A stretch of DNA of 64,000 nt from an uncultured Candidatus Binatia bacterium (GCA_965200965.1 OZ241744.1:3040001-3104000); one strand, 5' to 3'. Positions 9,422-27,015 are shown, counted from the first letter of the stretch. Numbers and translations are program-made. The notes: generated by a model not told the origin, from the sequence alone.

Positions 9422-9433
9422 GGGAGAGGTGTC

Positions 9434-9949: not shown

Positions 9950-9988
9950 CCAAAAGCCAGACCATTCGGCAGGCTGGGCAGATACCCT

Positions 9989-10657: not shown

Positions 10658-10668
10658 AGGATACGACT

Positions 10669-11112: not shown

Positions 11113-11531
11113 GCAGTTTCTATTTTGAAGATGTCGAAGAGGGCGACGAGTTCCCACCCCTGGACCTGTTTCTGACCAAGGACCAGGTCCGTCGCTATGC
11201 GTGGACCGCCAATATGGATTTTCCGCGCTTTACCGACGACGAGGGGGCTCGCAAGGAGGGCCTGCCCGGCATGATTGCGCCCGGCGTCATGAGCATGGGC
11301 CTGCTGGCGCGGATGATCAGCGACTGGAACCCCGCCGCGCGGATTACCCGTATCGGAACGACATTCCGCAGCCCGGTCCTGCCCGATACACGTCTCCACC
11401 TGTGCGGTGCAGTCACCCAGAAAGACGAACAGACCCATACGGCCGAATGTGATATCTGGATGGAAAACGACGACGCCGAACGCTGGGTCATTGGTACCGC
11501 AACACTTGCCCTGCCGACAAAATCGGCCTGA
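11109..11531 (+). CDS. MaoC family dehydratase subunit
   Basis: FEDVEEGDE...GLPGMIAPG...FRSPV; ATGA-coupled to the previous gene. Confidence 0.8.
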   Translation: MSSFYFEDVEEGDEFPPLDLFLTKDQVRRYAWTANMDFPRFTDDEGARKEGLPGMIAPGVMSMGLLARMISDWNPAARITRIGTTFRSPVLPDTRLHLCGAVTQKDEQTHTAECDIWMENDDAERWVIGTATLALPTKSA

Positions 11532-11596: not shown

Positions 11597-12328
11597 ATGC
11601 TCAGTCGAATCGTTCTTCCGTCACTCGTGTTGCTGGTGTGTCTGACCCCGGGGCCGACTCCGGCCCAACTCGGCGACGGTCTTGAAGACTCGCTGGACGC
11701 CAGCGCTCAGGTGTACGAAACCTCCCGGCTCGAAACCTTCAACGAAGCCATGTTTGACGTGAACCTGTGGCTGGATGAGAAAGTCATGCGCCCGGTGGCC
11801 AGAGGCTATGAAAGAGTCCTTCCCGCAGGTGCCCGCCTGGGGGTGCAACGCTTCTTTCTCAACCTGGGCGTCCTGCCCCGGTTCGCCAACAGCCTCTTGC
11901 AGTTCAAATTCAACGGGGCGGCGCGAGAAGTGAGCCGCTTTATGGTCAATACCACGGTCGGCGGACTCGGCTTCTTTGACGTGGCCAAGACCCAGTTCGG
12001 GCTTCAGGAGAGCAACGAAGACTTCGGCCAGACGCTGGGCTCTTACGGCCTGGAAGGCGGGGCCTATCTCGTGCTGCCATTCCTTGGTCCGTCAACCGTC
12101 CGTGACGCTGTGGGCTTTGTGGTGGATGGGGCGATGGACCCTAAACAGTATATCCTGCCTGGCACCCACAATCTTGCGGTCAGCACTGGAACGACCGTCA
12201 CCAACGCCGTCAACGACCGATCGTTGAACCTGGAGTTGTTTGAGCAGGTTGATCGCTTCTCGCTCGACCTCTACAGCGCCGCCCAGGACTTCTACCTGCA
12301 ACGCCGAGAGCAGCAGATCGAGGAATAG
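11597..12328 (+). CDS. mlaA: VacJ/MlaA family protein (hopanoid-transport associated)
   Basis: FNEAMFDVN, RFMVNTTVGGLGFFDVA, EDFGQTLG, YLVLPFLGPSTVRD. Confidence 0.9.
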   Translation: MLSRIVLPSLVLLVCLTPGPTPAQLGDGLEDSLDASAQVYETSRLETFNEAMFDVNLWLDEKVMRPVARGYERVLPAGARLGVQRFFLNLGVLPRFANSLLQFKFNGAAREVSRFMVNTTVGGLGFFDVAKTQFGLQESNEDFGQTLGSYGLEGGAYLVLPFLGPSTVRDAVGFVVDGAMDPKQYILPGTHNLAVSTGTTVTNAVNDRSLNLELFEQVDRFSLDLYSAAQDFYLQRREQQIEE

Positions 12329-12333
12329 CAGCC

Positions 12334-12924
12334 ATGCCATATCGCCGACACGCTCTGTGCTTCGCCTTGGGTCTGGCGCTGGCCTGGGCTGGGCCGGCTC
12401 AGGCCGAGACCCCGACCCACATGACCCGGCAGTTGCTTGAGTCTATTATTGCCTGCACAGAAACGAACGGAGCCCAGCCGAGCGGCTGTGATGTGGAAAA
12501 AATTGAGGACCATCTGGCCCTCGCCCAACTCGCCCGCTGGCTGATGGGCCCCCACTGGCAGGACCTCGGCCAGGACAAGCAGGACGATTTCGTCGCCCTG
12601 CTCGCCCACCTGCTGCGCGATGTCGCCTATCCCCGCGCCGCCGCATTCCTCTCCAGCCACCAGATTGTGTACGGCCACAACCGCGTTGAGGGCAAGGAGG
12701 CCAGTGTGGAAACCTTGCTCGTCAACGCCGAAGAGGGCCAAGTCGCCATCACCTATCGCCTGCACCTCATTGACGACCGCTGGAAGGTCTGGGATGTGCA
12801 TCTTGACGGGGTAAGCATGGCCGGCAACCTGCGCAAACAGGTGCAATCCATCATGGCCCGCACATCCTACGAGGAGTTGGTCAGGCGCATGAAGGACAAA
12901 CTCACCTGGGACGGGCCGGGGTAA
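12334..12924 (+). CDS. hpnM: MlaC/Ttg2D family periplasmic lipid carrier (HpnM-like)
   Basis: Signal peptide; YRL....WKVWDVHLDGVSM motif; lies between mlaA and hpnN. Confidence 0.8.
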   Translation: MPYRRHALCFALGLALAWAGPAQAETPTHMTRQLLESIIACTETNGAQPSGCDVEKIEDHLALAQLARWLMGPHWQDLGQDKQDDFVALLAHLLRDVAYPRAAAFLSSHQIVYGHNRVEGKEASVETLLVNAEEGQVAITYRLHLIDDRWKVWDVHLDGVSMAGNLRKQVQSIMARTSYEELVRRMKDKLTWDGPG

Positions 12925-12931
12925 GCGCCAA

Positions 12932-15769
12932 GTGAAGACCCTGCGCCTGCCGCCGTCCGCCCCTTCCGCCCACCCCTTTCCGCCGGACATGACCTGGGAG
13001 CAGCGTGCCCTGTCCTCCCTGGCCGGCCTGACCACGACCCATCCTGTCTCGGTCCTGGCCGTGTGTCTGGCCCTGGTTGGCGTAGCGCTCGGCTATACCG
13101 CCTTGTGTCTGGAGTTCGTCACCGGCCGCAACGATCTCATCAACAGCGACAAGCCGTATATCAAGCTGGAGAAGCAATACACCGAGGAGTTTGGCAGCGT
13201 TGACCAGTTCTTTGTTGTGGTTGAGCCGCAGGATATCGAGCAGGGCAAAGCCTTTGTGGTCCGGCTCGCCGACCTCCTGGCCCGGGAGACCCGCCATGTC
13301 AAGGAGGTCTTCTATCAGATCGACACCAGCTCGCTCGACGGTAAAAAGCTCCTCTATCTGTCTACTGAGGGCCTGCAACGCCTGCTTGACGACCTCGCCG
13401 GATCCCGGGAACTGATCCACGACCTCACCGCCGCCCCCGGCCTCAACACCCTCTTTGAGGCCCTGAACCACCAGATCGCTCAAGCCACCGTCTCATACTT
13501 GGTCGGCGGTCTGTTGGACCTCGGCCACACAGCCGAGCAGGAAACCGGCGGCGAAACACCAACGCCGCAGATCGGTTTTCTCAACTCCCTGCTGTACGAG
13601 ATGGACCAGACCCTCAGCAACCCGGCCCATCGCTATCAGTCACCCTGGGAAGAGTTCTTTGGCGATACCCAAGCGCTGTCGGATGAGGGCTTCCTGGTGT
13701 CCGGCAACCGCCGCTTTCTCTTCATGCTGCTTGACCCCGCCGAGCCGGAAGAGGCCGGACTGACCGAGTTGCAAGACGCCATCACCACAATTCGGCGCAT
13801 TATTCACGACCTGCGCCCGGACTTCCCCGGACTTGACGCCGGTCTGACCGGCATAGAGGTCCTTGATACCGATGAGATGACCAGCGCCCAGCGTGACGCC
13901 CCGTCCGCAACGCTGGCCACCACCCTCGGCATTGGCCTGCTGTACCTGCTCTTTTTTCAGCGCCTCCGCCACCCCGTGCTCATTCTCTCCTCCCTGCTCG
14001 TCGGCCTGTCCTGGACGATGGGCTTTGTCACCCTCGCGGTCGGCCACCTGACCATTCTCAGCGTCTTTGTCGCTCCCCTGCTGCTGGGTCTGGCCGACGA
14101 TTTCGGCGTCCACTTCATGACCCGCTACGAGGAAGAACGCGGCACCGGCAGCGACCCGATTGCGGCCCTCCAGCAGGTCTCTATTCATACCGGGCCGAGC
14201 ATTATCGCCGGGGCGTGTACAACGGCCCTGGCCTTTGCCGCCATTATGCTGGCCGACTTCCGGGGTATGCAGGAACTCGGCCTGATGTCCAGCGTCGGTA
14301 TGCTGCTGTCCCTGCTGGCCATGTTCAGCTTTTTGCCGGCCCTCGTCGTGGTGGTTGAGCGCATCCGGCCCTGGCAGGCCCGTACCAGCCGCCGGCGTTT
14401 CCTGAGTGCCAGCTTTGCCGCCCTGGGGCGGCTGGTCGAGCACAGACGGCGGCCGGTTCTGGTGGTGGCCGGTCTGCTGACGCTGGGGGCGCTGGCTGCG
14501 CTGCCGACCGTTCGGTTTGACTATGACCTGCTCAATCTTCAAGCCCACGGCACGCCCTCGGTTGAGTGGGAGAGACGCATCATCGCCCATTCCGAACGCG
14601 CGTCCTGGAATGCCCTGGCCACCGCTTCAAGCCCCGAGGCCGCCATGCGGAAAGCCGCGGCCTTTGAAGCCCTGCCGGTCGTCGAAACGGTCGAAAGCGT
14701 GGCCTCGTTCATCCCCGCCGGACAGGACCGGTGCCTGCCGCTGGTGTCCGCCCTCCAACCCCTGCTGGCCGACCTGCCCCCGACCCTCGCTCCCGCTCCG
14801 CCGGTTGTAGTCTCCGCCCTGCAACGCTCTCTTGACCAGATCCGCTTCAAGGTCCGCGAGAGCAACGAGGACTGGGACCCTGAAAACCGGCCCACCGAGA
14901 GCGAGCTGAGCACCGCCCGCGACCGGCTCAAAACCATTGTCGCCCGTTTGCAAAACCTGCACGAGGCCGAAGCCCGGGCCGCGCTCAGCCAGTTTCAGGC
15001 CGATCTGTTTGCCGACTTTGCCGAGGTCTGGAGCCTGCTGCGGAACAACATTCATCCCGCCGGTCCGATTACCATGACCGACATTCCGCCCCAACTCAAA
15101 AAACGCTTCGTAAGCCGTGACGAGGACAGGTTCCTGCTTCAGATCTATCCCAAACACAATATCCGTGAACAGCAGGCGCTCGAAGCCTTTATCCGCCAGC
15201 TGCGCCAAGTAGACCCCAATGTCACCGGCTCGCCGGTCATTGGCTATGAGTCAATTCACGCCATGCAGCAGGGCTATCTCGAAGCCGCGCTATACGCCCT
15301 GCTGGCGATTGTGATCGTCACCTTTGGGACCCTGCGGCGCGTCGCTGATACCCTGCTCGCCCTCCTGCCGCTCGGTCTGGGGATGATCTGGACGGCCGGC
15401 CTGATGTGGCTGTGCAAGCTCCAGTTCAACGTGGCCAACCTTGTTGCCGCCCCACTCATTATTGGCATCGGTATCGAAAACGGCATTCACCTTGTCCACC
15501 GTTTTCGAGAGGACCCGCACACGACACCGGCCAGCCTGGTCGCCGGCAGCACCGGACAAGCCGTCGCCCTGTTTTCGCTGACAACTATGGTCGGCTTTGG
15601 CAGCCTGATGATCGCCAAATACTATGGCGTTTTCAGTATGGGCTTGCTACTCTCGCTGGCAGTCGGTAGCGTCCTGCTTGCCTCCCTCGTCGTGCTTCCG
15701 ATGCTGTTGTCTCGCCCGGCAGGCCACACGGCGCAGCATGACAGCGACCACGTCCAGGCCGCCGGCTGA
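12932..15769 (+). CDS. hpnN: Hopanoid transporter, MMPL/RND family
   Basis: Two 6-TM repeats (GLADDFGVH; GIGIENGIH), large periplasmic loops, hpn gene context. Confidence 0.88.
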   Translation: MKTLRLPPSAPSAHPFPPDMTWEQRALSSLAGLTTTHPVSVLAVCLALVGVALGYTALCLEFVTGRNDLINSDKPYIKLEKQYTEEFGSVDQFFVVVEPQDIEQGKAFVVRLADLLARETRHVKEVFYQIDTSSLDGKKLLYLSTEGLQRLLDDLAGSRELIHDLTAAPGLNTLFEALNHQIAQATVSYLVGGLLDLGHTAEQETGGETPTPQIGFLNSLLYEMDQTLSNPAHRYQSPWEEFFGDTQALSDEGFLVSGNRRFLFMLLDPAEPEEAGLTELQDAITTIRRIIHDLRPDFPGLDAGLTGIEVLDTDEMTSAQRDAPSATLATTLGIGLLYLLFFQRLRHPVLILSSLLVGLSWTMGFVTLAVGHLTILSVFVAPLLLGLADDFGVHFMTRYEEERGTGSDPIAALQQVSIHTGPSIIAGACTTALAFAAIMLADFRGMQELGLMSSVGMLLSLLAMFSFLPALVVVVERIRPWQARTSRRRFLSASFAALGRLVEHRRRPVLVVAGLLTLGALAALPTVRFDYDLLNLQAHGTPSVEWERRIIAHSERASWNALATASSPEAAMRKAAAFEALPVVETVESVASFIPAGQDRCLPLVSALQPLLADLPPTLAPAPPVVVSALQRSLDQIRFKVRESNEDWDPENRPTESELSTARDRLKTIVARLQNLHEAEARAALSQFQADLFADFAEVWSLLRNNIHPAGPITMTDIPPQLKKRFVSRDEDRFLLQIYPKHNIREQQALEAFIRQLRQVDPNVTGSPVIGYESIHAMQQGYLEAALYALLAIVIVTFGTLRRVADTLLALLPLGLGMIWTAGLMWLCKLQFNVANLVAAPLIIGIGIENGIHLVHRFREDPHTTPASLVAGSTGQAVALFSLTTMVGFGSLMIAKYYGVFSMGLLLSLAVGSVLLASLVVLPMLLSRPAGHTAQHDSDHVQAAG

Positions 15770-15780
15770 GAGCGACCGCC

Positions 15781-16266
15781 ATGATTACCGGAGCCGACTT
15801 TCTCAAAACGCTGCAAGCCGAAGGCTTCGATTTTTTTACCGGAGTGCCCTGTTCGCTGCTCAAGAGCCTGATCGCCTGCCTTGAAGAGGAGGGCAGGTAT
15901 ATCCCGGAGACCCGCGAAGACGCCGCGGTCGGGCTAGCGGCTGGTGCCTATATGGCCGGCAAACAGCCCGTCGTGATGATGCAGAATTCGGCCCTGGGAG
16001 TGTGCCTCAACGCCCTCGCCTCGCTGAGCCTGATCTACGAACTGCCGTGTCTGCTGATCGTTACTTGGCGCGGCTATCAGGGACAAGACGCGCCCGAACA
16101 TCTCATCATGGGTAACATCTCTCCCCGCCTCTTCGAGACCGTGCGCATTCCGTACCGGGTCCTGGGTGCCGAGACCGCCACCCAGGACGCTGGATGGGCC
16201 GCCCAGGCCCTCCACCACAGCAAAAAACCGGTGGCTCTGCTGCTCCCTCCGGGGGTGCTGGCGTGA
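15781..16266 (+). CDS. Phosphonopyruvate/sulfopyruvate decarboxylase, alpha subunit
   Basis: FFTGVPCSLL, REDAAVGLAAG, MQNSALG, WRG..GQDAPEH. Confidence 0.88.
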   Translation: MITGADFLKTLQAEGFDFFTGVPCSLLKSLIACLEEEGRYIPETREDAAVGLAAGAYMAGKQPVVMMQNSALGVCLNALASLSLIYELPCLLIVTWRGYQGQDAPEHLIMGNISPRLFETVRIPYRVLGAETATQDAGWAAQALHHSKKPVALLLPPGVLA

Positions 16267-16826
16267 AACTGGCAGACGCCCTAGGCGTAGTGATTCCCCT
16301 CCTGGGCGACGAGCTAGTCGTACACGCCAACGGTTTTATTGCGCGCCAATCCTTCACTCTCAGCGACCGGCCGGGCAACTTCTACATGATCGGCTCAATG
16401 GGACTCGCCTCATCTATCGGCCTGGGCCTTGCCCTCAACCGTCCCGACCGCCGGGTAGTGGTCTTTGACGGCGACGGCAATGTGCTCATGAATATGGGCT
16501 CTCTGGCGCTCATTGGCGCTACCCAGCCGTCCAACTTTGTCCATATCGTTTTCGACAACGAAGCCTACGGCTCAACCGGCAATCAACGCACCATCTCGGC
16601 TCATGTCGCCCTCGAAGACATCGCCCGCTCCAGCGGCTACCCGCGCGTTGGCAGGGTTGAAACCCCAGCCGCTCTCAAAGCCGCGGCAGGCGCATTACTT
16701 GCTCAGGTCGGCCCCTCGTTTCTGCTGATCAAAATTGAACCCGACTGGCAAGAACGCCGGGTCGGCCGCATCACCCACGAACCGCCCCGGATTGCCCAGC
16801 GGTTCATGGATGCGATGAGAAAATGA
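16263..16826 (+). CDS. Phosphonopyruvate/sulfopyruvate decarboxylase, beta (ThDP-binding) subunit
   Basis: GTG start overlapping the alpha stop; NFYMIGSMG, GDG...FDNEAYGSTGNQ ThDP motif. Confidence 0.88.
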   Translation: MKLADALGVVIPLLGDELVVHANGFIARQSFTLSDRPGNFYMIGSMGLASSIGLGLALNRPDRRVVVFDGDGNVLMNMGSLALIGATQPSNFVHIVFDNEAYGSTGNQRTISAHVALEDIARSSGYPRVGRVETPAALKAAAGALLAQVGPSFLLIKIEPDWQERRVGRITHEPPRIAQRFMDAMRK

Positions 16827-16858
16827 CGACGCTGTAACCCCTGCCTGCCGAGTTCCCC

Positions 16859-17932
16859 ATGCAAGCCATCCTCCTCAACCCCGGTCCGGTCAACGTCTCC
16901 CCGCGCGTCCAGCAAGCCTTATTGCGTGGAGACCTGTGCCACCGCGAAGCCGAGTTCTCAGACCTGCTGCGAGCTATCCGCTCAAAGCTCCTGCGGGCCT
17001 TTGCCCCCCAGGACTATACCGCGGTCGTCATCAGCGGCTCAGGCACCTCCGCGGTAGAGGCTATGGTGTCCTCAGCCCTGCCCCCGGGGAAAAAACTCCT
17101 GGTCATCAACAACGGGGTCTACGGCGAGCGTATGCTGCGCATGGCCACCGCCCACCGAATACCGAGTGTTGAGTTGCGCTATGCCTGGACCGAGCCGCCC
17201 GACATCGCTCAGATCGAAGCCAAGCTTCAGGCCGACCCGGCTATCGGCGGCGTCGCCCTCGTCCACCATGAGACCACCACCGGGCTGTTGAACCCGGTCT
17301 CCGAGGTCGGGGCCCTGACCAGGCGGCTGGGGCGTGTGTTCCTGCTTGATGCAGTCAGCGCCTTGGCCGGCGAAGACCTTGCCCTTGCCCGCGACCAGGT
17401 CGATCTATGTGCTTGCACGGCCAACAAATGCGTCCAGGGCTTGCCCGGCGTGGCCTTTGTGTTGGTACGAACGAGCCTGATGGAAGCGATGCAACACCAC
17501 CAACCCAACTCGCTCTCTCTTCACCTGCCCGTCCACTGGGCAGCCCAGGAACGCAACAGCGTCCCCTTTACCCCATCTGTGCAAACCTGGTACGCCCTTG
17601 ACGCCGCCCTTGATGAGCTGCTGGAAGAAACCGTGGCGGCACGCATCGCTCGCTATCGCGCCGCCTCGCAGCTGCTGCGGACCGGCTTCGGTCGGCTGGG
17701 GCTGCGGTTTCTTTTGCCGCCCGAACGGCGGGTCAACTCGCTCACCGCGCTGGTCTTGCCCCACACCCTGAGCTACCACGAACTGCATAACCAGCTTAAA
17801 CACCGCGGCTTTGTCATCTATGAAGGCCAGGGTCAACTCCAGACCGCTATCTTCCGGGTCGCCAACATGGGGCATCTGAGCCTTGATGACTTCCGCCGTT
17901 TCCTCCGCAGCCTTGAAGACGCGCTGCGCTAG
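16859..17932 (+). CDS. 2-aminoethylphosphonate aminotransferase (PhnW/AepZ family, class V PLP)
   Basis: LLNPGP, SGSGT, HHETTTGLLNP, DAVS, ANKCVQGLPG, FT.SVQ, FRVANMG. Confidence 0.85.
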   Translation: MQAILLNPGPVNVSPRVQQALLRGDLCHREAEFSDLLRAIRSKLLRAFAPQDYTAVVISGSGTSAVEAMVSSALPPGKKLLVINNGVYGERMLRMATAHRIPSVELRYAWTEPPDIAQIEAKLQADPAIGGVALVHHETTTGLLNPVSEVGALTRRLGRVFLLDAVSALAGEDLALARDQVDLCACTANKCVQGLPGVAFVLVRTSLMEAMQHHQPNSLSLHLPVHWAAQERNSVPFTPSVQTWYALDAALDELLEETVAARIARYRAASQLLRTGFGRLGLRFLLPPERRVNSLTALVLPHTLSYHELHNQLKHRGFVIYEGQGQLQTAIFRVANMGHLSLDDFRRFLRSLEDALR

Positions 17933-17947
17933 CTCAGCTTCCACACC

Positions 17948-18685
17948 ATGAAAGCCATTATTCTTGCCGCCGGCATAGGCAAACGCTTCCAAGCCGTCAC
18001 CGACCAGCTCCCCAAGTGCCTGATTGAACTCCACGGGCGGACGCTCCTGGAGCGAACCCTGTCCGCCCTTGGTGCGGCTGGGGTCAGCCGGGCGGTGGTC
18101 GTCGTTGGCTATCGGGCCGAGATGGTTGAGCAGAAAATCGGGGCCAGGTGTGGCAAGGTCCAGGTCTCCTACATCACCAATCCCCGCTATGACCAAGGGG
18201 CGATCGTGTCGCTGTGGAGCGCCCGCCAGGAGTTTGACGACGATCTCCTCATCATGGATGCCGATGTCCTGTTCCCGACCGCCCTGCTCAGCCGGCTCAT
18301 CACCTCCCCCCATCCGAACTGCTTTCTGCTCGACGCCGGTACGGCCAATACCGGAGAAGAACAAATGCTGCTGACCCGGGGCGGCCGGGTAGTGACGATC
18401 GTGCGGGGTGGGTCCGGGGAGTATGATCTGATTGGCGAGTCCATAGGCTTCCTCAAAGTTTCGCGTGACGATGCGGCCCTCCTGCACGCCATTCTTGACG
18501 AGCAGATTGCCCAAGGCCGGGACACCATCGAACACGAAGAAGCCTACCCGCTTTTCCTGGCCCAGCGCGTTGTCGGCTTTGAACGGGTCGAAGACCTGCC
18601 GTGGATAGAAATAGACTTTCCCCATGACTTAGAGCAGGCCGAGCGGGAAGTCCTGCCGCGCATTCTTGCCCTCGATCGGGCCTAG
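17948..18685 (+). CDS. LicC/PntC-like phosphocholine/phosphonate cytidylyltransferase
   Basis: AIILAAGIGKR...PKCL, MDADV, GESIG, WIEIDFPHDL. Confidence 0.82.
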   Translation: MKAIILAAGIGKRFQAVTDQLPKCLIELHGRTLLERTLSALGAAGVSRAVVVVGYRAEMVEQKIGARCGKVQVSYITNPRYDQGAIVSLWSARQEFDDDLLIMDADVLFPTALLSRLITSPHPNCFLLDAGTANTGEEQMLLTRGGRVVTIVRGGSGEYDLIGESIGFLKVSRDDAALLHAILDEQIAQGRDTIEHEEAYPLFLAQRVVGFERVEDLPWIEIDFPHDLEQAEREVLPRILALDRA

Positions 18686-18691
18686 ACGCCC

Positions 18692-20443
18692 ATGCTCCCC
18701 TCCTTCCTCAGCCCCCTGACCCGCCTGTCGCCGGTAGCGTTGGCTGGCCTGTTTACGCTGCTGGCCGGCCTCGCCTTCCTGTGGAAGCTGGGCGACGGGC
18801 CGATCTACCGGACGATGGAAGGGCGGGAAGCCCTGGTGATGCAGGAGATGCTGCGCAGCGGCAACTGGGTGCTGCCGCTGCGCAATGGCGAGACAATTCC
18901 TTCCAAACCGCCCCTGTTACACTGGCTCGGTGCCGGCGTCGCCCGGCTGAGCGGGGGAATGTCGGAATGGGCAGCCCGCTTTCCGTCTGCCCTGTTCTCT
19001 GCCCTGAGCGTCGGCCTGACCTGTTTGCTCGGCTGTCGGCTGGCCAACCGTGAGGTCGGCATCCTGGCCCCTCTGCTGTTGCTCACCACGCCCCTGTTTG
19101 TCGAAATGGCGCGGGAAGCCTGGGTCGATTCGGCCCTGGCCTTTTTTGTCCTGGCCAGCCTGAGCAGTTTCGCCGGTATGTACGAAGCCGGCGAATGGCG
19201 GGGCTGGCGGAGTCTGGCCTTTGCCCTGTCCCTGGCCGGCGCAAGCCTCAGTAAAGGCCCGATCGGCCTCATTCTGCCCAGCCTGGTGATTACGCTCTAC
19301 CTCACAGCCCAGGGACAACTGTCACGCCTCCGGTACCTGTTGCGCCCGACCAATGTCGTGCTGGCCCTTGGCCTTCCCCTGACCTGGTATATCCTGGCGT
19401 TCAACCAGGAGGGCTGGGCATTTTTTCACAAGCAACTGCTCCAGGAAAACATCGTGCGCTTCACCTCCGGTTCGGGCAAACAGATTCCCTCCTCAGCCTT
19501 TTTTGTCGTGCCGTTTATCGTGGGCGGCCTGCCCTGGAGCCTGCTGTTCGGCTTTGGCCTGTGGCACTTTGCCCGCCAGGCTCCTATCCGCGAGAAGGGG
19601 GTACTGGCCCTGATGTGGTGGCTGGCGACCGTCGCCTTTTTTTCGGTCGCCGCCGGCAAGCGCGAGGTGTATCTCCTGCCCCTGTACCCGGCGGTTGCCC
19701 TGTTTGCCGCGCAGTGGGGCTGGGTACATGTCCCCCGCCAGACACGACCGCTCTCCCCCTGGCTGGCAACAGGTCTTGCCCTGGTCGCTCTCGGCCTCAG
19801 CCTGGCAAGCCTGCTGGCCGCGGCCACTATTGTGCTCGGCTGGCTTACCGTGGACTCGGCCGCGGTAGAGCTGGTGTTTGGCGACGACAAATGGAAAAGC
19901 GCGGCCCGCTTCATCCGCTTTGTGGCTGAGCAACCGGCGTATGCCACGATGTTGCTGGCTCTTGTGAGCAGCTGCGGGCTGGGGGCAGTCTGGACGGCGA
20001 CACAGGGCCGCTGGCAGACCAGCCTGTGGCTAGTGCTGTGTGTCCTGTTGCTGACGACCGCCGGCCTGTCGCCTTTTACCCGGGCCTATGCCAAACAGTT
20101 CAAAGCCCTGACCGGATTTGCCGCCCACATCAGCCAGGCAGTCGGCCCTGACCAGCGCGTGTTCTTCTACACCCCCCGGCCCTATTCTTCAGAGTTTGAT
20201 GAGTTCTCCCAGGTCTATTTTTACCTCAACCGCCCGGTCCCCCTGGCCGCGTGCGCCGAGCAGCCCGACTTTTCCCGCTGCCAGCCGGGCTACTACATCC
20301 TGCGGGAACGGCACTGGCACCCCCGGCAACACACGCCTGGTACCCATCTGGTGGTGGACAGCCGCAACGTCTCAGGGCCGGATGCGCACCTGCGCCTGGT
20401 CCTGGTCCGCCGGGATGAAAGCACCCCTGGCAGCAGCTTATAG
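18692..20443 (+). CDS. ArnT/PMT-like GT-C membrane glycosyltransferase
   Basis: EGRE...EM..SGNWVLP..NG...SKPPLLHW, ARFPSA, KGPIG, KREVYLLPLYP; many TM segments. Confidence 0.88.
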   Translation: MLPSFLSPLTRLSPVALAGLFTLLAGLAFLWKLGDGPIYRTMEGREALVMQEMLRSGNWVLPLRNGETIPSKPPLLHWLGAGVARLSGGMSEWAARFPSALFSALSVGLTCLLGCRLANREVGILAPLLLLTTPLFVEMAREAWVDSALAFFVLASLSSFAGMYEAGEWRGWRSLAFALSLAGASLSKGPIGLILPSLVITLYLTAQGQLSRLRYLLRPTNVVLALGLPLTWYILAFNQEGWAFFHKQLLQENIVRFTSGSGKQIPSSAFFVVPFIVGGLPWSLLFGFGLWHFARQAPIREKGVLALMWWLATVAFFSVAAGKREVYLLPLYPAVALFAAQWGWVHVPRQTRPLSPWLATGLALVALGLSLASLLAAATIVLGWLTVDSAAVELVFGDDKWKSAARFIRFVAEQPAYATMLLALVSSCGLGAVWTATQGRWQTSLWLVLCVLLLTTAGLSPFTRAYAKQFKALTGFAAHISQAVGPDQRVFFYTPRPYSSEFDEFSQVYFYLNRPVPLAACAEQPDFSRCQPGYYILRERHWHPRQHTPGTHLVVDSRNVSGPDAHLRLVLVRRDESTPGSSL

Positions 20444-20516
20444 TTCAAACTACAGTCCCCACCCCACGCCAGGGCTTGGCTTGCATCCTGCCCCAGCTCC
20501 AGATACACAGAGCCAG

Positions 20517-21275
20517 ATGGCTGCCGACGCTCCGTCTCCTCCCCCCCCCCCGCTTGGTGAACGTCCGGCCGGTCTGGTCCAGACCGGCCTCGCCGCCTGG
20601 CTGCGCCGCTACCGACGTCTTGTCCCTATCCCGCTGTGTGTCCTGGTTCTGATATTCCTTCCTCCCCTCTCCCCGCTGGCCAGCCCAGGGCTTGACTTTG
20701 CTAGCGATATCCTTGGCACAGCGGTGTGTCTGCTCGGCCAGTGGCTGCGGGTCTGGGCCTGGGGCAGCAACGCCGTGGTCGGCAAGGCCGGCGTGCGTGA
20801 GCGCGGCCCCTACGCCCTGATGCGCCACCCCCTGTACGCCGGCAACTTTCTCATCGTGCTGGGCCTCGTCCTGGTCTATCATAACCCCTGGGTCTATCCG
20901 CTCTTCCTGCTGCCCTTTGCCTATCTGTACGACGCCATCACCAGGATGGAAGAGCAACGCCTGCACTGGCGTTTTCCCCACGACTACGAAGGCTATCGGC
21001 AAGTCGCCGTACCCCGCTTTCTCCCGGTCCTGTCACATCTGGGCCGGGCGTTTGACACCACGCGCCCGTTTGGCTGGCGGCTGGCTTGGCGCAAAGAGTA
21101 TGAGTCGCTCTGCGGTTGGCTGGCCGGCATTGTCGGCATTCAACTCTACGAGCGGGTTGAGGTGCTTGGCTGGACGGTCGCTTGGCCGGCCAGCCGCCTG
21201 TGGCTCGGCCTGCTGGCGTTGATCACCGTGGCCAATATGGCTCTCAAAGCGCGCAGACGCCTCTCACAGCGGTGA
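20517..21275 (+). CDS. Isoprenylcysteine/phospholipid methyltransferase family membrane protein
   Basis: GPYALMRHPLYAGN...EEQRL...F..Y..Y...VPRFLP; start at ATG 20517 inferred. Confidence 0.8.
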   Translation: MAADAPSPPPPPLGERPAGLVQTGLAAWLRRYRRLVPIPLCVLVLIFLPPLSPLASPGLDFASDILGTAVCLLGQWLRVWAWGSNAVVGKAGVRERGPYALMRHPLYAGNFLIVLGLVLVYHNPWVYPLFLLPFAYLYDAITRMEEQRLHWRFPHDYEGYRQVAVPRFLPVLSHLGRAFDTTRPFGWRLAWRKEYESLCGWLAGIVGIQLYERVEVLGWTVAWPASRLWLGLLALITVANMALKARRRLSQR

Positions 21276-21279
21276 GCCG

Positions 21280-22155
21280 ATGGCCGCGCTCGGGCGCAAA
21301 CGCCTCATTGTCAACGGCGACGATTTTGGGATGTCCGAGCGGGTCAATGCGGCCATCCTGTACGCCCATCAGCACGGGATTCTGACCAATACCAGCCTGA
21401 TGGTCACTGCCAAGGCGTGGCGCGGGGCGATCGAGCTAGCGCGGGCCACGCCGAGCCTCGGGGTCGGGCTGCACCTGACCCTGGTCCAAGGTCGGTCGGT
21501 CCTGTCACACCCCCATGTCTCACGGCTGACCGACCGCAACAGAAACTTTCTCAATGATCCGACCCGTGCCGGGCTACGCTACTTCTTCTCGCCCCGTGCC
21601 CGCTCTCAGGTCCGGGACGAATGCCGGGCCCAGATCGAGCGCTTTCTGGCCACCGGCTTGCCGCTGGCTCATATTGACGGGCATCTCCATATGCACATGC
21701 ATCCCGTCGTTCTGGACAGCCTGCTGGAGCTGGCCAGGGAATATGGCGTCCGGGCGGTGCGGCTGACCCGGGAATCGCTGGCGCGGAGCTTGGCGCTCGA
21801 TCCGCGCGCCGCACCTCGCAAACGCCGGCAGTCTTTCATCTTTCGCCGTCTTGCCCGGCATGCCGAAAAGAAGCTGGCCGCGGCCGGCCTTGTCTGGCCG
21901 GATGCGCTGTTCGGCCTGCACCAGACCGGAGCGGTAGATGGGCCTTACCTGCTCGGCATCCTGCCCCATCTGCACGCCGGCGTGACCGAACTGTACTGCC
22001 ACCCCGCCTTTCTGCCCTGTGCCGAGGTCCAGGGCTGGAGCCCGGGCTATCGCCGTGACCTTGAGCTGGCCGCCCTGACCAGCCGGGCCGTTCGGCGCAT
22101 GATTGACGACCAGAATATTGAACTGATCGGCTACCGCGATCTGTACCGGGCCTGA
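21280..22155 (+). CDS. hpnK: Hopanoid-associated YdjC-family deacetylase HpnK
   Basis: LIVNGDDFG, VGLHLTLV, HIDGHLHMHMHP, ELYCHP. Confidence 0.88.
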   Translation: MAALGRKRLIVNGDDFGMSERVNAAILYAHQHGILTNTSLMVTAKAWRGAIELARATPSLGVGLHLTLVQGRSVLSHPHVSRLTDRNRNFLNDPTRAGLRYFFSPRARSQVRDECRAQIERFLATGLPLAHIDGHLHMHMHPVVLDSLLELAREYGVRAVRLTRESLARSLALDPRAAPRKRRQSFIFRRLARHAEKKLAAAGLVWPDALFGLHQTGAVDGPYLLGILPHLHAGVTELYCHPAFLPCAEVQGWSPGYRRDLELAALTSRAVRRMIDDQNIELIGYRDLYRA

Positions 22156-22284
22156 CTGGACATGGGCCTACGGCCAGGGCTGGCTGCGGTCACGCGCTCA
22201 TGCCCAACTGGTAAGGGCTAGAGCGATTTCAGGGGATGCTAGCAGGCGTTAGCGTTGTGAGGGTGTGAGCGGGCTGGAGGGCAA

Positions 22285-22302
22285 GCCCCCCTTCGGGGGG
22301 GC
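22285..22302. terminator. GCCCCCC-TTCG-GGGGGGC hairpin between convergent genes
   Basis: 7-bp perfect stem with a cUUCGg tetraloop. Confidence 0.55.
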
Positions 22303-22399
22303 ATCACAATGAAAGAGTGGGGTAGTGCGGCATCTGATATGGGATCACTCGTAGCGGGTTCAGAGTTGCTAGGCCGTCCGTGTATGCCACGCCATAAGG

Positions 22400-23086
22400 T
22401 CATTCAGTCCCTACTATGGTAAAGTTCTGAAGGCTTTCATCCCATTCCAGAATTGACGTTATTCCTGGGCGCGGGAAGTCGGGAACCCTCACCCTGCGAG
22501 AGTATTCTTCCCCGAAATGAGCGATACGGAATTCGTTTTGGGCATAGATGGGGTGCTGCCTATTGTAGATGTGCTCGCCAGTTACCACGCCAGATTCACC
22601 CAGCACTATAGTAAGAGGCCCGCTACAGTCTAAGCGGTTTTCCCCTATGCAGTACAGGTTCCAGTTCACAAGGACAGAAAAGCCGAGAGAGCTATTCTCG
22701 GGCGGAAACAGACAACGCTCCCCCGGCAGGGCGTCCGCCCGTGTTTCGTGGGTCGCTAGATAGCCCAACGCCGGGCGGGGCTCTTCCGATATGCTGGCGG
22801 CTGGCCTCCAGCCAACATTAGTAGGACACCAGGATGTTTTCCCGTTCTGGTCTTGAATCCAGCAGTTATGAGCATCCCCGCAGGTCCAGCCCCGGATAAC
22901 CCCAATGCCTGCTTGTGTAGAGCCGAGGGCAGGTGTTTCTATGACGGTTTCCCCGCGATGCTCGGCATACCCGATAGGGGCAAGCACCGGCACTAGAATC
23001 GCCAGGGTGAAGGCGAGGGGTAGATCAATTGCAAGATTGATTTTGCGTATGCTGACGAGGCCAGCCCGCCCGTTCTGGGCTGTCAA
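22400..23086 (-). CDS. Secreted protein with a diverged copy of the unnamed two-Cys domain (start uncertain)
   Basis: Signal-like segment then IETPALGSTQAGIGVIRGWTC...TRAD...VNWNL...FGEEY...PDFPRPG....LEWDESLQNF. Confidence 0.7.
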   Translation of the reverse strand: MTAQNGRAGLVSIRKINLAIDLPLAFTLAILVPVLAPIGYAEHRGETVIETPALGSTQAGIGVIRGWTCGDAHNCWIQDQNGKTSWCPTNVGWRPAASISEEPRPALGYLATHETRADALPGERCLFPPENSSLGFSVLVNWNLYCIGENRLDCSGPLTIVLGESGVVTGEHIYNRQHPIYAQNEFRIAHFGEEYSRRVRVPDFPRPGITSILEWDESLQNFTIVGTE

Positions 23087-23221
23087 GCCGGCGCTAGCAG
23101 TCTCACAGAGCAGCTCGTCAAGCCGTCACTTGAAAACTTGATTATTGCAAACGTACCTTGATAAGAAAAAAAGAAGAAGTAGAACTTTTCTCTCCCTTCT
23201 TGTCAATGATTTTCGGTCGGC

Positions 23222-24391
23222 CTACAAGGTCTCGCTGTGTGAGACATCGGGTACGATGTCTTCCGCGGCCATGAGCGCCATCGTGCCATCCCGACGCACC
23301 CGAAAGGTATGCTCTCGCCAGCGGACGGTGTTCCCGCCCAGGCTCCAGACCCAAATCCCGAAGGCCATGAGGTCGGTGATGAGGACAAGTCCAAACGTTG
23401 CCAGGGGTAGCCTGACCCCCAGAAAATATCGGCCCAGCAGCATAGCCGAGAGACAGCGAACCGCCAGGGTCAGCCCGGACAGGACGGCCAGCGTTGTCCA
23501 GCCCGACATAAGCCCCAGCACGGCCCAGACCGTGCCATACGTCACCAGGGTGCCCACATAGCCGACCGGGCGGCACAGGCGTTGGGTTCGCGCCCAGCGC
23601 ATCTGGTGGGAGACCAGTTCCCGCAGGCTGGCCACGTCGGGATAGGTTTCGACGACATAGGGCAGGATGCGCACCCGGTAGCCGGCCCGGCGGGCAAAGT
23701 TCCCCAGATAATAATCATCGGCCAGATAATCGGCCAGGGCCGCAAAGCCCCCGATAGCCTTAGTACACGAATGTGTCACGGCCACGCTTGCCCCAAAGGC
23801 GTAGCTGGTCCGCTCGACCTGGCTGGCAAGCAGGACGGCAGGCATGAAAGAGGTGTTGATCAGCACCGATTCGAGCAGGGCCGGCAGGGGCTGGCGAGCG
23901 ACGCTGCGGTAGGGACAGGTCACGACTCCGACCCGTGGACCGCTCAGGGGTGGAATGATGCGCCGCAGGTAGTCCGCGGCGACCTGCACATCGCTGTCGC
24001 TGATGACAAAAATGTCGTATTTGGCCCGCTGTGACAGCGCGTGCAGGGTGTTCACCTTCTGATTGCTCCCGACCGTCTCAGGATCGACGACCAGCACAAT
24101 ATCGCACTCTGGGAAGTCGTGCTGGAGGTGTTGGACGACCGTGATGGCGGGATCGAGCGGGTCGCGTACACCAAACAACAGTTGAAAGGCAGGGTAATCA
24201 ATACGGCAGAAACTCGCCAAATGCGCGTACAGGTCGGGCGTTGCCCCCTTGAGAGGCTTCAGGATGGACACCGGCGGGCAGGCTGCTAGGGGGGTGGGAC
24301 GCGGTCGAAATAGTCGCCAGGCGGCATACACGGACAAGAGGTAATACGCCCAGGCAGCACACAGCAAAACGGCGAGGAGGATCGTAAGCAT
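23222..24391 (-). CDS. hpnI: Bacteriohopanetetrol glucosamine glycosyltransferase HpnI
   Basis: PVSILKPLKG, GSNQKV, SDSD, LADDY, QMRWART (GT2/GT21). Confidence 0.9.
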   Translation of the reverse strand: MLTILLAVLLCAAWAYYLLSVYAAWRLFRPRPTPLAACPPVSILKPLKGATPDLYAHLASFCRIDYPAFQLLFGVRDPLDPAITVVQHLQHDFPECDIVLVVDPETVGSNQKVNTLHALSQRAKYDIFVISDSDVQVAADYLRRIIPPLSGPRVGVVTCPYRSVARQPLPALLESVLINTSFMPAVLLASQVERTSYAFGASVAVTHSCTKAIGGFAALADYLADDYYLGNFARRAGYRVRILPYVVETYPDVASLRELVSHQMRWARTQRLCRPVGYVGTLVTYGTVWAVLGLMSGWTTLAVLSGLTLAVRCLSAMLLGRYFLGVRLPLATFGLVLITDLMAFGIWVWSLGGNTVRWREHTFRVRRDGTMALMAAEDIVPDVSHSETL

Positions 24392-24407
24392 AAGAGCGGG
24401 CGGACGG

Positions 24408-24434
24408 CCGGAGGGGAAGGCTCAGCCCCTCCGG
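24408..24434. other. Intercistronic stem-loop between hpnJ and hpnI
   Basis: CCGGAGGGG ... CCCCTCCGG, 9-bp perfect stem. Confidence 0.45.
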
Positions 24435-24444
24435 GCACGGTGTC

Positions 24445-25890
24445 CTAGGCGGCTGGTGCGGTGCTCTTGCCGGCCATCTGACGCCGGGTGCGCATGGTCC
24501 GAAAAAAATCTTTGCCTTCTTGCCACATCCGTTTGCGTTCCTCGGGGTTGGCGACCATCTTTTTCACGGCTTTGACGATGTAGCGGGGACGCAGATAGTA
24601 GGAGGTGTAAAACCGCTCAACCGTCGAGAAGATCTCCTCGCTCGACAGGTGGGGGTAGTTAATGACGCATTGCTGATAGCCCGTCTCGTCCACCATGTCT
24701 TCCGGTTTGATCAAGCCGTGTGCTACGGCGTGGTCGTAGAAGGCGGTCCCGGGATAGGGTGAGGCCAGGGAGACCTGGATCGTCTCGGGGTTCATTTCCC
24801 GTGCAAAACGCATGGTCTCTTGCATGGTTTCCCGCGTTTCACCAGGCAGGCCGAGGATAAACGTGCCGTGAATCAAAATGCCGAGCTTGTGGCAGTCTGT
24901 GGTAAACCGCCGGGCGGTTTCGAGCGCAACGCCTTTTCTGATGTTTTTCAGAATCTGGGCGTTGCCGGACTCATAGCCAATCACAAACAGGCGCAGGCCG
25001 CCCTCTTTCATGATTCTGAGCGTTTCGTAGTCAACATTGGCCCGCGAGTTTGTGGACCAGCACAGGCCCAGCGGTTTGAGTCGCCGGGCGATCTCGCGTG
25101 CCCGTTTGGGATCCGCGGTGAAGGTGTCGTCATCAAAGAAAATCTCTTTCATGCCTGGAAACAGACGGGGCATGGCCTGGACTTCGGCAATCACGTTGTC
25201 CACCGAGCGGGTCCGGTAGGAGTGGCCGGTCGTGACCTGGGGCCAGAGGCAGAAGGTGCAGCGGGCCGGACAGCCACGGCCGGTGTACAGGGACACATAC
25301 GGGTACTGACAGTAGGGGCTGTTATACTTGCGGAAGTCGAGGTCGCGGGCATAAATGGAGCTTGCAAAGGGCAGGCGGTCCAGTTCGTCACCGGTCATCG
25401 GGGTCCGCTCGGGATTATGCACAATCCGCCCGTTCTTCCGGTAGCTGATGCCTTGGACCTGGGCCCAGTCCAGACCCTCGGCCAGCTCTTTCATTGACCA
25501 GTCGAACTCTTTGCGGGCGGCGATATCAATGGCGGTGGATGCTTGCAGGGTCTGCTCGGGCATGGCCGTTGGATGGCCGCCGACAAAGGCGACCGTCGCC
25601 CCCGGATTGCTGTCCTTAATCATCTGCGCGGTTTGCACGTCCATCTTGAACGAGGGCGTACTGGTATGCAGGACCACGAAGTCATACGCCTTGGCAATAG
25701 CGACGCTCTGGGCCTGACTCAGCCCCTCGGGCGGAGCGTCAAGCACACGGCTGTCTTGAATCATGCCGGCCGGGTAACACAGCCAAGTTGGATACCAGAA
25801 GGACCACACCTCCCGTGTCGCCTGATAGCGAGACCCCGCCCCGCCGTCGAAGTTGTCGTAGGCCGGGGGGTTTAAGAACAAGGTACGCAT
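24445..25890 (-). CDS. hpnJ: Hopanoid radical SAM protein HpnJ
   Basis: FLNPP..FDGGAGSRYQA..E..SFWYPTWL; CPARCTFCLWPQ radical SAM motif. Confidence 0.95.
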   Translation of the reverse strand: MRTLFLNPPAYDNFDGGAGSRYQATREVWSFWYPTWLCYPAGMIQDSRVLDAPPEGLSQAQSVAIAKAYDFVVLHTSTPSFKMDVQTAQMIKDSNPGATVAFVGGHPTAMPEQTLQASTAIDIAARKEFDWSMKELAEGLDWAQVQGISYRKNGRIVHNPERTPMTGDELDRLPFASSIYARDLDFRKYNSPYCQYPYVSLYTGRGCPARCTFCLWPQVTTGHSYRTRSVDNVIAEVQAMPRLFPGMKEIFFDDDTFTADPKRAREIARRLKPLGLCWSTNSRANVDYETLRIMKEGGLRLFVIGYESGNAQILKNIRKGVALETARRFTTDCHKLGILIHGTFILGLPGETRETMQETMRFAREMNPETIQVSLASPYPGTAFYDHAVAHGLIKPEDMVDETGYQQCVINYPHLSSEEIFSTVERFYTSYYLRPRYIVKAVKKMVANPEERKRMWQEGKDFFRTMRTRRQMAGKSTAPAA

Positions 25891-25977
25891 TCCCTCCTCC
25901 TTCCCTCATCTGTATCCACGTCACTCTCCTACATACCAAACAGCGGCCCGCCGGCATAGGGGCGACGGCCCGGCCGC

Positions 25978-27015
25978 TCAGGGCAGGGGCTCGGGCAGGG
26001 CCGGGGGATGCTCCCCGGCCCGCCAGGCATAGCCGGCGCGGGTCAGAAAGAGCAGACCAAGCCCGTTATAAACCGCCTCCCGCGCCCGTTTGAGGACCAT
26101 CAGGGCCAGCCCGGCCCCGACATCGATCCCGAGCAGACGACTCAGAAAGACCCCGGTGGTCTCTCTGACGCCGAGTGCACCGGGAATGACCAGGGCCGCG
26201 GCCGTCATGGGTTGCAGCATGGACTCAAGAATCAGTGCCTCGACCGGACTGACGCGGATACCGATCAGGGCAAAGATGACCCAGATTTCGACCGCGCCCA
26301 GCACCCAGCCCAACAGGTGGTAGAGGGTCGCGGCAAGAAAGGTGTGCGGCTTGCTGTCGTACAACTGGAGGAGCTGGGCGTCGATGCGCCGCGCGCCGGC
26401 TTCCCAGCGTTGCGGGGCCGACCAGTGTGGAAACCAGCGTCCCAGACCCCGGACGAGCTTTTCCATCAGACCGCGCCGCTGCCAGTGGATCAGACCCAGG
26501 ACAAAGCCGCAGGAGACGGCCAGCAGCAGACCCATCACCCACCAGCCGTGCAGCCCCCAGCCAAAGCGAAACAGAAAAAACGGCAGGCCGATAAGAATAA
26601 AGATGACCTGAGAGACGGTCAGCGCGGTTTTGGCCGCCACAACCGAGGCCATGCCCACCTCGGGACGAATCCCACGCCGGCGCAGCAGATAAACCTTGAA
26701 GGCTTCGCCGCCGATGGAGGCAGTCGGGGTGAGATTGTTTACCGCCTCTCCGGCAATCCGGCTCAGCGAGAAATACCACAGCGGGATGGGCCGGACAGCG
26801 GCGTCTTGGGGAACCAGCCACGACCAGCCCTTGGCATCACACGCGGCAATGGCGGCGTAGGGCAGGAGGACAAGTGGGGCGAACCAGCCCAGCCGAACCG
26901 TGTGGCTGGCAACATCGGACAGCCCGACCGTCCACACCAGGACGCCGAGCAGCCCCAGACCAAGCGATACGGACAGCAGTTGAATGCCACGGTGTTTTCG
27001 TGCGCTGGTGGTCAT
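25978..27015 (-). CDS. hpnL: HpnL / lysylphosphatidylglycerol-synthase-TM (flippase-like) membrane protein
   Basis: GEAVNNLTPTASIGGE, IPGALGVRE, KRARE motifs; upstream of hpnJ. Confidence 0.75.
   Translation of the reverse strand: MTTSARKHRGIQLLSVSLGLGLLGVLVWTVGLSDVASHTVRLGWFAPLVLLPYAAIAACDAKGWSWLVPQDAAVRPIPLWYFSLSRIAGEAVNNLTPTASIGGEAFKVYLLRRRGIRPEVGMASVVAAKTALTVSQVIFILIGLPFFLFRFGWGLHGWWVMGLLLAVSCGFVLGLIHWQRRGLMEKLVRGLGRWFPHWSAPQRWEAGARRIDAQLLQLYDSKPHTFLAATLYHLLGWVLGAVEIWVIFALIGIRVSPVEALILESMLQPMTAAALVIPGALGVRETTGVFLSRLLGIDVGAGLALMVLKRAREAVYNGLGLLFLTRAGYAWRAGEHPPALPEPLP

Follow-up and report, generated by a model that had tools for sequence, protein, structure and literature searches.

What is built by a set of phosphonate genes placed in the middle of a hopanoid operon? 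This question is raised by positions 11,597 to 27,015 of a 64,000-nucleotide stretch of DNA (the window) from an uncultured, sponge-associated Candidatus Binatia bacterium (sponge metagenomes being among the sources containing this DNA), the genome of which (G000) is 99.3% complete, with coordinates of its main sequence given as C1. In this region, six co-directional genes, encoding a split phosphonopyruvate decarboxylase (Ppd), the 2-aminoethylphosphonate (AEP) aminotransferase AepZ, the cytidylyltransferase PntC, a GT-C glycosyltransferase and a PEMT-like methyltransferase, lie between hpnN and hpnK. What the genes are by homology, their order, their conservation and the purifying selection acting on them have all been established here, and the locus can be plausibly described as a real, conserved and selected pathway, with a non-canonical candidate for formation of the carbon–phosphorus (C–P) bond and a plausible hopanoid acceptor. 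On these sequence-based grounds, AEP is very probably synthesized and activated as its cytidine monophosphate derivative (CMP-AEP). More tentatively, the window may be the middle of a dispersed pathway by which AEP is made, activated and attached to a membrane lipid, most likely to the polyol side chain of a hopanoid. The product is likely a membrane lipid that has never been isolated, and possibly a phosphonate-capped hopanoid.

The + strand carries, in this order, mlaA, the hpnM-like and hpnN-like genes, ppdA, ppdB, aepZ, pntC, the GT-C gene, the PEMT-like gene and hpnK, with intergenic gaps of -4 to 73 bases from mlaA to hpnK; ppdA and ppdB overlap by 4 bases, the GTG start of the beta subunit overlapping the stop of the alpha subunit. 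The genes hpnL, hpnJ and hpnI are on the - strand, facing this block. All the genes named in a preliminary description of this DNA have been confirmed in their places by coordinates and by Pfam and NCBIfam matches, and its statement that the window holds neither pepM nor a cytidine diphosphate (CDP)-alcohol phosphotransferase gene agrees with the lack of PF13714 and PF01066 matches inside it. The features are the following:

11597..12328, + strand: mlaA/vacJ-family lipoprotein (PF04333, 1e-64), presumably the trafficking partner of HpnM and HpnN.
12334..12924, + strand: hpnM/MlaC-like periplasmic carrier (PF05494; TIGR03481 44 bits, far below the cut-off of 160).
12932..15769 (alternative ATG at 12989), + strand: hpnN-like MMPL/RND hopanoid transporter (TIGR03480 587 bits, cut-off 752).
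15781..16266, + strand: alpha (Pyr) subunit of the split phosphonopyruvate decarboxylase (TIGR03297 132 bits, against 128 for the ComD model TIGR03845).
16263..16826, + strand: beta subunit (binding thiamine diphosphate) of the split phosphonopyruvate decarboxylase, with a GTG start (TIGR03846 179 bits and TIGR03297 173 bits, both below cut-off).
16859..17932, + strand: AepZ/PhnW AEP aminotransferase of class V (PhnW-AepZ model TIGR03301 352 bits, cut-off 361).
17948..18685, + strand: PntC-like cytidylyltransferase of the nucleoside triphosphate (NTP) transferase type, the predicted CMP-AEP maker (best PDB match 6PD1).
18692..20443, + strand: ArnT-like GT-C membrane glycosyltransferase, accessory (PF13231; PDB 5EZM, 1e-19).
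20517..21275, + strand: PEMT/ICMT-fold membrane methyltransferase, a family-level accessory (PF04191; LmtA model 57 bits, cut-off 325).
21280..22155, + strand: hpnK deacetylase of the YdjC family (TIGR03473 325 bits, above the cut-off of 233).
22400..23086, - strand: open reading frame of 228 aa, not part of the pathway (no Pfam or NCBIfam match).
23222..24391, - strand: hpnI glycosyltransferase, GT21-like (TIGR03472 375 bits, above the cut-off of 310; PF13506).
24445..25890, - strand: hpnJ B12-binding radical SAM enzyme (TIGR03471 724 bits, above the cut-off of 578).
25978..27015, - strand: hpnL membrane protein of the AEP-cassette lineage (TIGR03476 186 bits, cut-off 196), a putative flippase or transferase.

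This arrangement is not due to chance: of 24 loci belonging to this family or order, 22 have hpnN immediately ahead of ppdA, and the remaining two stop at a contig edge. Relatives with 77-92% identity are Candidatus Binatia (other genomes are designated by G and fetched loci by L numbers), and the synteny counts are made without L026 and L046, with aminotransferases at ~30%. Purifying selection acts on each of the 11 window genes tested, their dN/dS values against a congener being 0.08-0.22. The linkage of the cassette to hpn genes, on which the preliminary description relied, is also conserved across genomes, with synteny seen in Binatia, Roseomonas and Mycetohabitans.

Some observations concern the surroundings of the block. 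Seven relatives (L020, L021, L024, L030, L033, L035, and L037) have an outer-membrane efflux (TolC-like) gene in place of mlaA upstream of hpnM–hpnN. Family-wide, the genes directly upstream of mlaA/hpnM/hpnN (window 7455-11531, + strand) encode a hydrolase, a thiolase, a ChsH2-like protein, a PHP protein and two MaoC proteins, and resemble genes of lipid or steroid side-chain metabolism. The 228-aa reading frame, which went unmentioned in the preliminary description and is inserted between hpnK and hpnI, had no counterpart detected in L018, L019 and L027, all close relatives; it has a paralogue at C1:2351412 and a homologue in G003.

A search of genome G000 with PF13714 gave three genes, none of them inside the window. 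One of these, C1:2012024-2013700, encodes a 558-aa protein in which a domain similar to phosphoenolpyruvate (PEP) mutase, with the loop EDNIFPKRCS, is fused to a PF12804 nucleotidyltransferase domain. The other two (C1:3115338 and C1:2044267) were rejected as pepM, being lyase-like paralogues (38-39% identical). The presence of pepM had been proposed to be tested by means of the motif EDKxxxxxNS, and a six-frame scan of genome G000 gave no match; this test was discarded, since the non-canonical enzyme exists and an empty scan would have led to the wrong dismissal of the idea. Among PDB entries, the PEP mutase 5UNC (49%, root-mean-square deviation (rmsd) 1.3 Å) matches the mutase-like enzyme best, in sequence as well as in predicted fold, and 5UNC and 1PYM are the top Foldseek matches (rmsd 1.3–1.5 Å), in agreement with a mutase fold. 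Residues D58, D85, D87, E114, K120, S123, R159, and H190 of the Mytilus enzyme, which we take to be those of the active site, are kept in the alignment, and two positions of that enzyme are changed, K116 to N and N122 to C. The protein resembles PEP mutase (5UNC, 1PYM) and phosphonopyruvate hydrolase (PPH; 2DUA) in its barrel fold and aligned residues, but differs from both in its loop and in belonging to a lineage outside PepM and PPH. The loop EDNxxPKRCS is present in 120 of the 120 top homologues, some of which are named Nitrospira and Nitrospiria.

The mutase reading is founded on gene context, because the enzyme heads a pepM–ppdA–ppdB series in the slot of canonical PepM. In three other Binatia families (G039, G033, and G030), pepM, ppdA, and ppdB are contiguous and followed by aepZ–pntC, with hpnK, or hpnI/J, or hpnL inside the same 20 kb; ppdA comes directly after pepM in L042–L044. 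In G178 and G207, the corresponding place is taken by a canonical EDK..NS PepM (53% and 50% identical), fused in the same way and having the same partners. Among 40 relatives, the mutase is found at at least 55% in 27 and the window aminotransferase at at least 53% in 27. We infer that the fusion protein supplies the first step missing from the window, and the claim that AEP is synthesized and activated as CMP-AEP is strengthened by this PEP-mutase-like gene and by its operonic association with the block in those three families. As for the fused nucleotidyltransferase domain, it was rejected as an active PntC, since the catalytic motif GXGXR..PK is missing, and it is probably inactive.

Alternatively, the EDNxxPKRCS enzyme could be something other than a PEP mutase, and the block could handle a sulfonate (from sulfopyruvate to taurine) or another oxo-acid, which we consider improbable. 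The loop does not conform to the Ppm motif EDKXXXXXNS and has Cys at a position where the lyase branch also has it (paralogue loop EDQVWPKRCG). In addition, the lineage branches outside canonical PepM plus PPH (99/99), a tree joining PepM and the variant to the exclusion of PPH being rejected with p-AU 0.037 (19–26 rows, long branches), so the tree alone does not say that the enzyme is a mutase. The score of 279.8 bits is below the cut-off (319.55) of the PEP-mutase model TIGR02320, which is still the best NCBIfam model for this protein (256.5 bits for PPH, 196.3 for PrpB). Against the alternative stand the occupation of the canonical PepM slot in G178 and G207, the match to 5UNC, and a tree distance of 0.53 to the PepM/PPH side vs. 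~1.9 to the lyase-like paralogues. With regard to the sulfonate, the split decarboxylase scores as high on ComD/E models as on Ppd; neither subunit passed the ComDE cut-offs (alpha, 128 vs. 148 bits; beta, 179 vs. 222). The tree comparing Ppd with ComDE, which had been suggested to decide this point and was built without methanogen ComDE, did so in part: the alpha subunit falls with AepY, at a long distance from the two roseobacter ComD proteins included, and the beta subunit finds no clear place. No ComA match and no cysteate synthase above cut-off were found in genome G000; with no sulfopyruvate feeder gene there and the alpha subunit placed with AepY, the taurine reading was rejected, and the preliminary description was right in considering it the weaker one. 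The best PDB matches of AepZ are the AEP transaminases 1M32 and 6PD1.

The EDKX5NS motif is used as a filter in two surveys of phosphonate biosynthesis (10.1101/2021.04.07.438883; PMC6697681), according to the portions available, and the EDNxxPKRCS lineage is excluded from both for this reason. Since a widespread PEP-mutase-like lineage fails this filter, phosphonate producers among Binatia and relatives of Nitrospira have probably been undercounted, a more secure point than the lipid product. No paper describing this mutase variant was found in a literature searched largely without subscription papers.

Directly after the pepM-like gene, a gene conserved family-wide (C1:2013682-2014749; L014:11683-12750) encodes a 320-aa single-domain alpha/alpha barrel with QW repeats. 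These repeats and a DLDTT motif are present in 117 of 120 homologues, with Atlas clusters from Binatota and Nitrospinota, and the gene is found inside the cassette in L099 and inside the hpn block in G025. The barrel hints at terpenoid chemistry. No function has been assigned to it because its fold matches are weak (TM-score ~0.5–0.6) and common to terpene cyclases (oxidosqualene/squalene cyclases, MstE), prenyltransferases, and glycoside hydrolases.

Regarding activation, the NTP transferase of the window is predicted to make CMP-AEP, being closer to 6PD1, a nucleotidyltransferase/aminotransferase (55.5 bits), than to LicC 1JYK (40.8). Its motif, GIGKR-x8-PK, has the Arg and the Lys of the consensus GXG(T/S)RX4-8PK and a K at the T/S position, where the PntC of Roseomonas likewise deviates. 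Arg15 and Lys25 are needed for PntC activity, as stated in the part of PMC6697681 available. The PntC pathway described there for Treponema denticola and Atopobium rimae (6PD1) is similar in having a PF12804 cytidylyltransferase beside an AEP transaminase, with equivalents of Arg15 and Lys25 and a basic residue at the position of Lys153, and differs from the present locus in that the window PntC has K for T/S, is encoded by a stand-alone gene, and is followed by genes of lipid type (PMC6697681, portion available).

As to the transfer of AEP, the GT-C was rejected as a core AEP transferase, being missing from many cassettes; the likely transferase is a CDP-alcohol phosphotransferase encoded outside the window. 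Genome G000 has eight PF01066 matches, none of them in the window, and C1:1378311-1379558 is the candidate. A CDP-alcohol phosphotransferase of the same type (~400 aa) comes after pntC in G033 and G030. Matches at E<=1e-30 were obtained in 27 genomes, and in 10 of these the gene is within 2 kb of hpnJ; the protein of G000 clusters, moderately supported (89/86), with the copies next to hpnJ. Among proteins of solved structure, it is closest to AF2299 and IPCT/DIPPS, presumably enzymes that move a soluble CMP-linked donor onto a polyol. The CDP-alcohol phosphotransferase gene at 2878608 has an incomplete second copy with 98% identity (C1:2880699-2881388; L010), which flanks a CAP12/Pycsar TIR-domain gene. 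In G025, at a distance of 30 kb from the hpn block, an inositol-1-phosphate synthase gene lies beside one for an IPCT/DIPPS-like fusion (L158:14125-16555), a possible di-myo-inositol-phosphate pathway.

Pathway genes are thus distributed over three loci of G000, at 1.378, 2.012, and 3.056 Mb of C1. HpnL belongs to the same module, because the window protein groups (97/97) with the HpnL proteins of AEP cassettes (G178, G030, G033, and metagenome loci). In Mycetohabitans, another HpnL is encoded in hpnI–J–K–L, from which it follows that HpnL serves both contexts. In the parts of the literature available (PMC12324291; PMC12583986), the function of HpnL is stated to be unknown. Among 28 metagenome loci with a full ppdA–ppdB–aepZ–pntC core beside the mutase, a CDP-alcohol transferase is encoded in 19, hpnI/J/K in 14, and hpnL in 11.

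The order of events in the proposed pathway would be as follows. The PEP-mutase-like fusion, with its non-canonical loop, would turn PEP into phosphonopyruvate, as its gene context suggests; by homology, PpdA/B would decarboxylate this to phosphonoacetaldehyde, AepZ would convert the latter to AEP, and PntC would activate AEP as CMP-AEP. In the last and weakest step, the CDP-alcohol phosphotransferase at C1:1378311 might move AEP to a hydroxyl of bacteriohopanetetrol (BHT) or of its glucosamine or cyclitol head. The modified hopanoid would then leave via HpnL and HpnN–HpnM–MlaA.

The GT-C and the methyltransferase are regarded as accessory because they are missing from many cassettes. Both are absent from the locus in genus g8 (L038–L040), and GT-C also in L042 and L044; among the full metagenome cassettes, 2 of 28 have GT-C and 0 of 28 the methyltransferase, which is present in 18 of 24 genomes of the same family (f1) and in 0 of 7 others. 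GT-C has three paralogues in genome G000. Consequently, the N-methylated product that had been envisaged was rejected as a general one, N-methylation being at most a family-level extra. The two proteins may be optional tailoring enzymes or part of another envelope pathway, their best models, ArnT and LmtA, suggesting lipid A just as much as the AEP pathway. This resemblance is at the origin of another proposal, which we consider very unlikely, in which AEP is placed on lipid A/lipopolysaccharide, with GT-C and the methyltransferase acting on lipid A, or on a soluble polyol. DegT and Gfo/Idh genes, taken here to be GnnB/GnnA-like, come after the pair in G015, as a lipid A context would have it; a soluble polyol is suggested by the similarity of the C1:1378311 transferase to DIPPS, and DIPPS-like transferases can make soluble phosphodiesters. 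However, the two genes are missing from most cassettes, the donor of ArnT is an undecaprenyl-linked sugar and not a CMP donor, and lipid A would account for this pair of genes more readily than for the core of the cassette.

The acceptor is the point on which the hopanoid reading has to be weighed. In this organism, sequence evidence favors a hopanoid, with less than even confidence, ahead of diacylglycerol and, further behind, ceramide. Genome G000 has shc, hpnH, and hpnB above cut-off and an hpnG-like gene below it (124 vs. 187 bits), and with hpnI, hpnJ, and hpnK it carries a C35 hopanoid gene set with HpnIJK tailoring, shc being 1.5 Mb from the window block. The BHT-glucosamine/cyclitol ether pathway of HpnI/K/J and the transport by HpnN/HpnM, as presented in the available part of PMC12324291, find their likeness here in hpnI, hpnJ, and hpnK above cut-off and in shc and hpnH of the same genome, but the window hpnN and hpnM are below cut-off. 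A canonical-pepM cassette that includes hpnL and a gene for a CDP-alcohol transferase lies beside shc, hpnH, and an MMPL transporter gene both in Roseomonas marmotae and in Mycetohabitans rhizoxinica, and a similar arrangement is reported for Nitrosococcus. In a sample of 251 genomes of the phylum, shc was found in 46 and hpnL in 32, with shc in 29 of the 32 hpnL genomes (kin are not independent), and 5 of 7 genomes with the PepM–nucleotidyltransferase fusion have shc. Of 80 metagenome loci of the mutase, one of the scan patterns for which contained the variant motif, 27 have hpnI, J, or K and none has hpnN (many contigs are short).

Several observations weigh against a hopanoid acceptor. Two near-complete genomes, G030 (98% complete, 6 contigs) and G038 (100%, 3 contigs), keep, respectively, the whole module with hpnL, hpnI, hpnJ, and hpnK, and pepM–ppdAB–pntC–transferase with hpnI and hpnJ (hpnI and hpnJ being above cut-off in both); no shc and no hpnH could be found in the two genomes. 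This contradicts the pattern, given in the available part of PMC12324291, by which HpnI and HpnJ are found only together with SHC, and in these genomes HpnI and HpnJ may use scavenged hopanoids or an acceptor of a different kind. A canonical cassette is present in G055 without shc or hpnL; in the fetched cassette flanks of G178, G207, a metagenome clade (L090/L096/L113/L115), Burkholderia cenocepacia, and Cupriavidus P-10, hpnL is the only hpn gene recognized; and G032, G040, and G277 carry shc and hpnJ without this pepM. The Binatia neighborhoods are not independent evidence, being inherited fragments of one block, and at least seven loci of the same family have a break between aepZ and pntC. 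In addition, the tree of CDP-alcohol transferases does not separate acceptor types and was set aside as a reader of the acceptor, genome G000 holds a sphingolipid-like operon, and a survey of hopanoids in 54 Alphaproteobacteria contains no occurrence of "phosphon". Hence, of the AEP-modified bacteriohopanepolyol originally proposed, the AEP and CMP-AEP part is supported, and the hopanoid acceptor is not established, with ceramide and diacylglycerol also available.

Diacylglycerol as acceptor, which would give a phosphonate analogue of phosphatidylethanolamine and reduce the hpn linkage to an island of envelope-lipid genes or an HpnL translocator used in common, is unlikely but has to be taken seriously. 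No other acceptor is expected in all genomes with the cassette, since G038 and G055 show neither shc nor a ceramide-synthase match; the cassette is apart from hpn genes in several lineages, and a homologous cluster has been published as "phosphonolipid". However, the G038 and G055 cassettes have no hpnL (nor has G038 an adjacent aepZ) and may make another product, the cassette is repeatedly embedded among hopanoid genes in distant classes, and no such lipid has been characterized from these clusters despite their expression. Ceramide, the acceptor that would yield ceramide-aminoethylphosphonate as in the phosphonosphingolipid of Bacteriovorax stolpii, a bacterial precedent, is a distant third. 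The sphingolipid-like operon of G000 (C1:1318367-1326273; L148) encodes a GNAT protein, a serine palmitoyltransferase (SPT)-like enzyme, an epimerase/reductase, a desaturase, a diacylglycerol-kinase-like protein, and a CDP-alcohol phosphotransferase, which suggests that Binatia make ceramides. The SPT-like protein matches SPT 3A2B best in the PDB (421 bits vs. 210 for BioF), although it is below all NCBIfam cut-offs; the GNAT gene is present in 20 of 24 same-family genomes with at least 62% identity, but G033, G038, G178, and G207 hold the cassette with no GNAT match and G039 has a weak match only. Also in line with ceramide, G030, without shc, has the same sphingolipid-like locus, and HpnI is in the GT21 family, presumably a ceramide glucosyltransferase label. 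Conversely, the sphingolipid locus has its own kinase and a phylogenetically separate CDP-alcohol transferase. A hopanoid, then, continues to be the favored acceptor.

Two further observations were made in these genomes. A second envelope-lipid locus (C1:960578-973500; L146, L147) carries genes for NTP transferases, a CDP-alcohol phosphotransferase, an MsbA-like ATP-binding cassette transporter, a GT4 glycosyltransferase, and LptF/G-like permeases, and homologues of its NTP transferases are found inside the sphingolipid locus of G030. In G000, a pqqB, pqqC, pqqE cluster is situated ~6 kb from shc (L015:1866-4986).

More broadly, it can be conjectured, with considerable doubt, that Binatia and many hopanoid producers make a phosphono-hopanoid, in which AEP is esterified to a bacteriohopanepolyol by the DIPPS-like transferase and moved by HpnL/HpnN, that this is the product of the published "Group 1 phosphonolipid" clusters, and that in Binatia and Nitrospira relatives the C–P bond would be formed by a PEP mutase that branched off early and has a KRC loop of the lyase type. 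If this were true, HpnL would gain a function and the long-missing product of the Group 1 clusters would be found; the locus ties both questions to one molecule, BHT-AEP (computed [M+H]+ 654.486). A phosphonate-capped hopanoid, if real, would be a new lipid class, relevant to biomarkers and to phosphorus cycling in sponges and soils.

No paper describing a phosphonate-bearing hopanoid was found in the literature searched, which largely excluded subscription papers, and the available parts of PMC8692599 and PMC9999580 have nothing on the pathway. Nevertheless, the idea is not as new as it had been presented, since related products have been speculated on in print. A phosphonoterpene was proposed for gene cluster family (GCF) 731 of Nitrosococcus, with AEP genes by squalene/hopanoid genes (10.1101/2021.04.07.438883), and a "terpene-phosphonate" was suggested for Roseomonas/Belnapia (PMC8776678), as far as the available portions go. 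These clusters are similar to the present one in having AEP genes beside squalene/hopanoid genes; theirs, however, have a canonical PepM by shc, whereas here the neighbors are genes for transport and side-chain tailoring, and the passages concerned name neither HpnL nor a transferase step. The Group 1 clusters also have a 2-oxoglutarate-Fe(II) oxygenase; a single query, that of Mycetohabitans, had no match in G000 at E<=1e-12 nor in the 80 metagenome loci at E<=1e-7.

The closest known system is the Group 1 cluster, also named "Burkholderiales_CDP-OH", the product of which is given as uncharacterized in the available parts of 10.1101/2021.04.07.438883 and PMC5987646; in the former, it forms the largest AEP-encoding group of pepM neighborhoods (318 of 882), with no characterized product. 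Judged by its genes, the present locus is a variant of this product-less cluster. Both have Ppd, an AEP transaminase, a second PntC, a CDP-alcohol phosphotransferase, and hpnL, as far as the cluster is described in those parts, and its Ppm fused to a nucleotidyltransferase has a candidate counterpart here. On the other hand, the mutase loop here is non-canonical and the fused PF12804 domain has no GXGXR..PK motif; Ppd is split in two and below the cut-offs of the hidden Markov models; the transferase, at ~410 aa, carries an additional N-terminal part and exceeds the 200–230 aa of its counterparts; GT-C, the methyltransferase, and the cyclase-like barrel are additional; and the genes are spread over three loci, where they are interleaved with hpnN/M/K/I/J.

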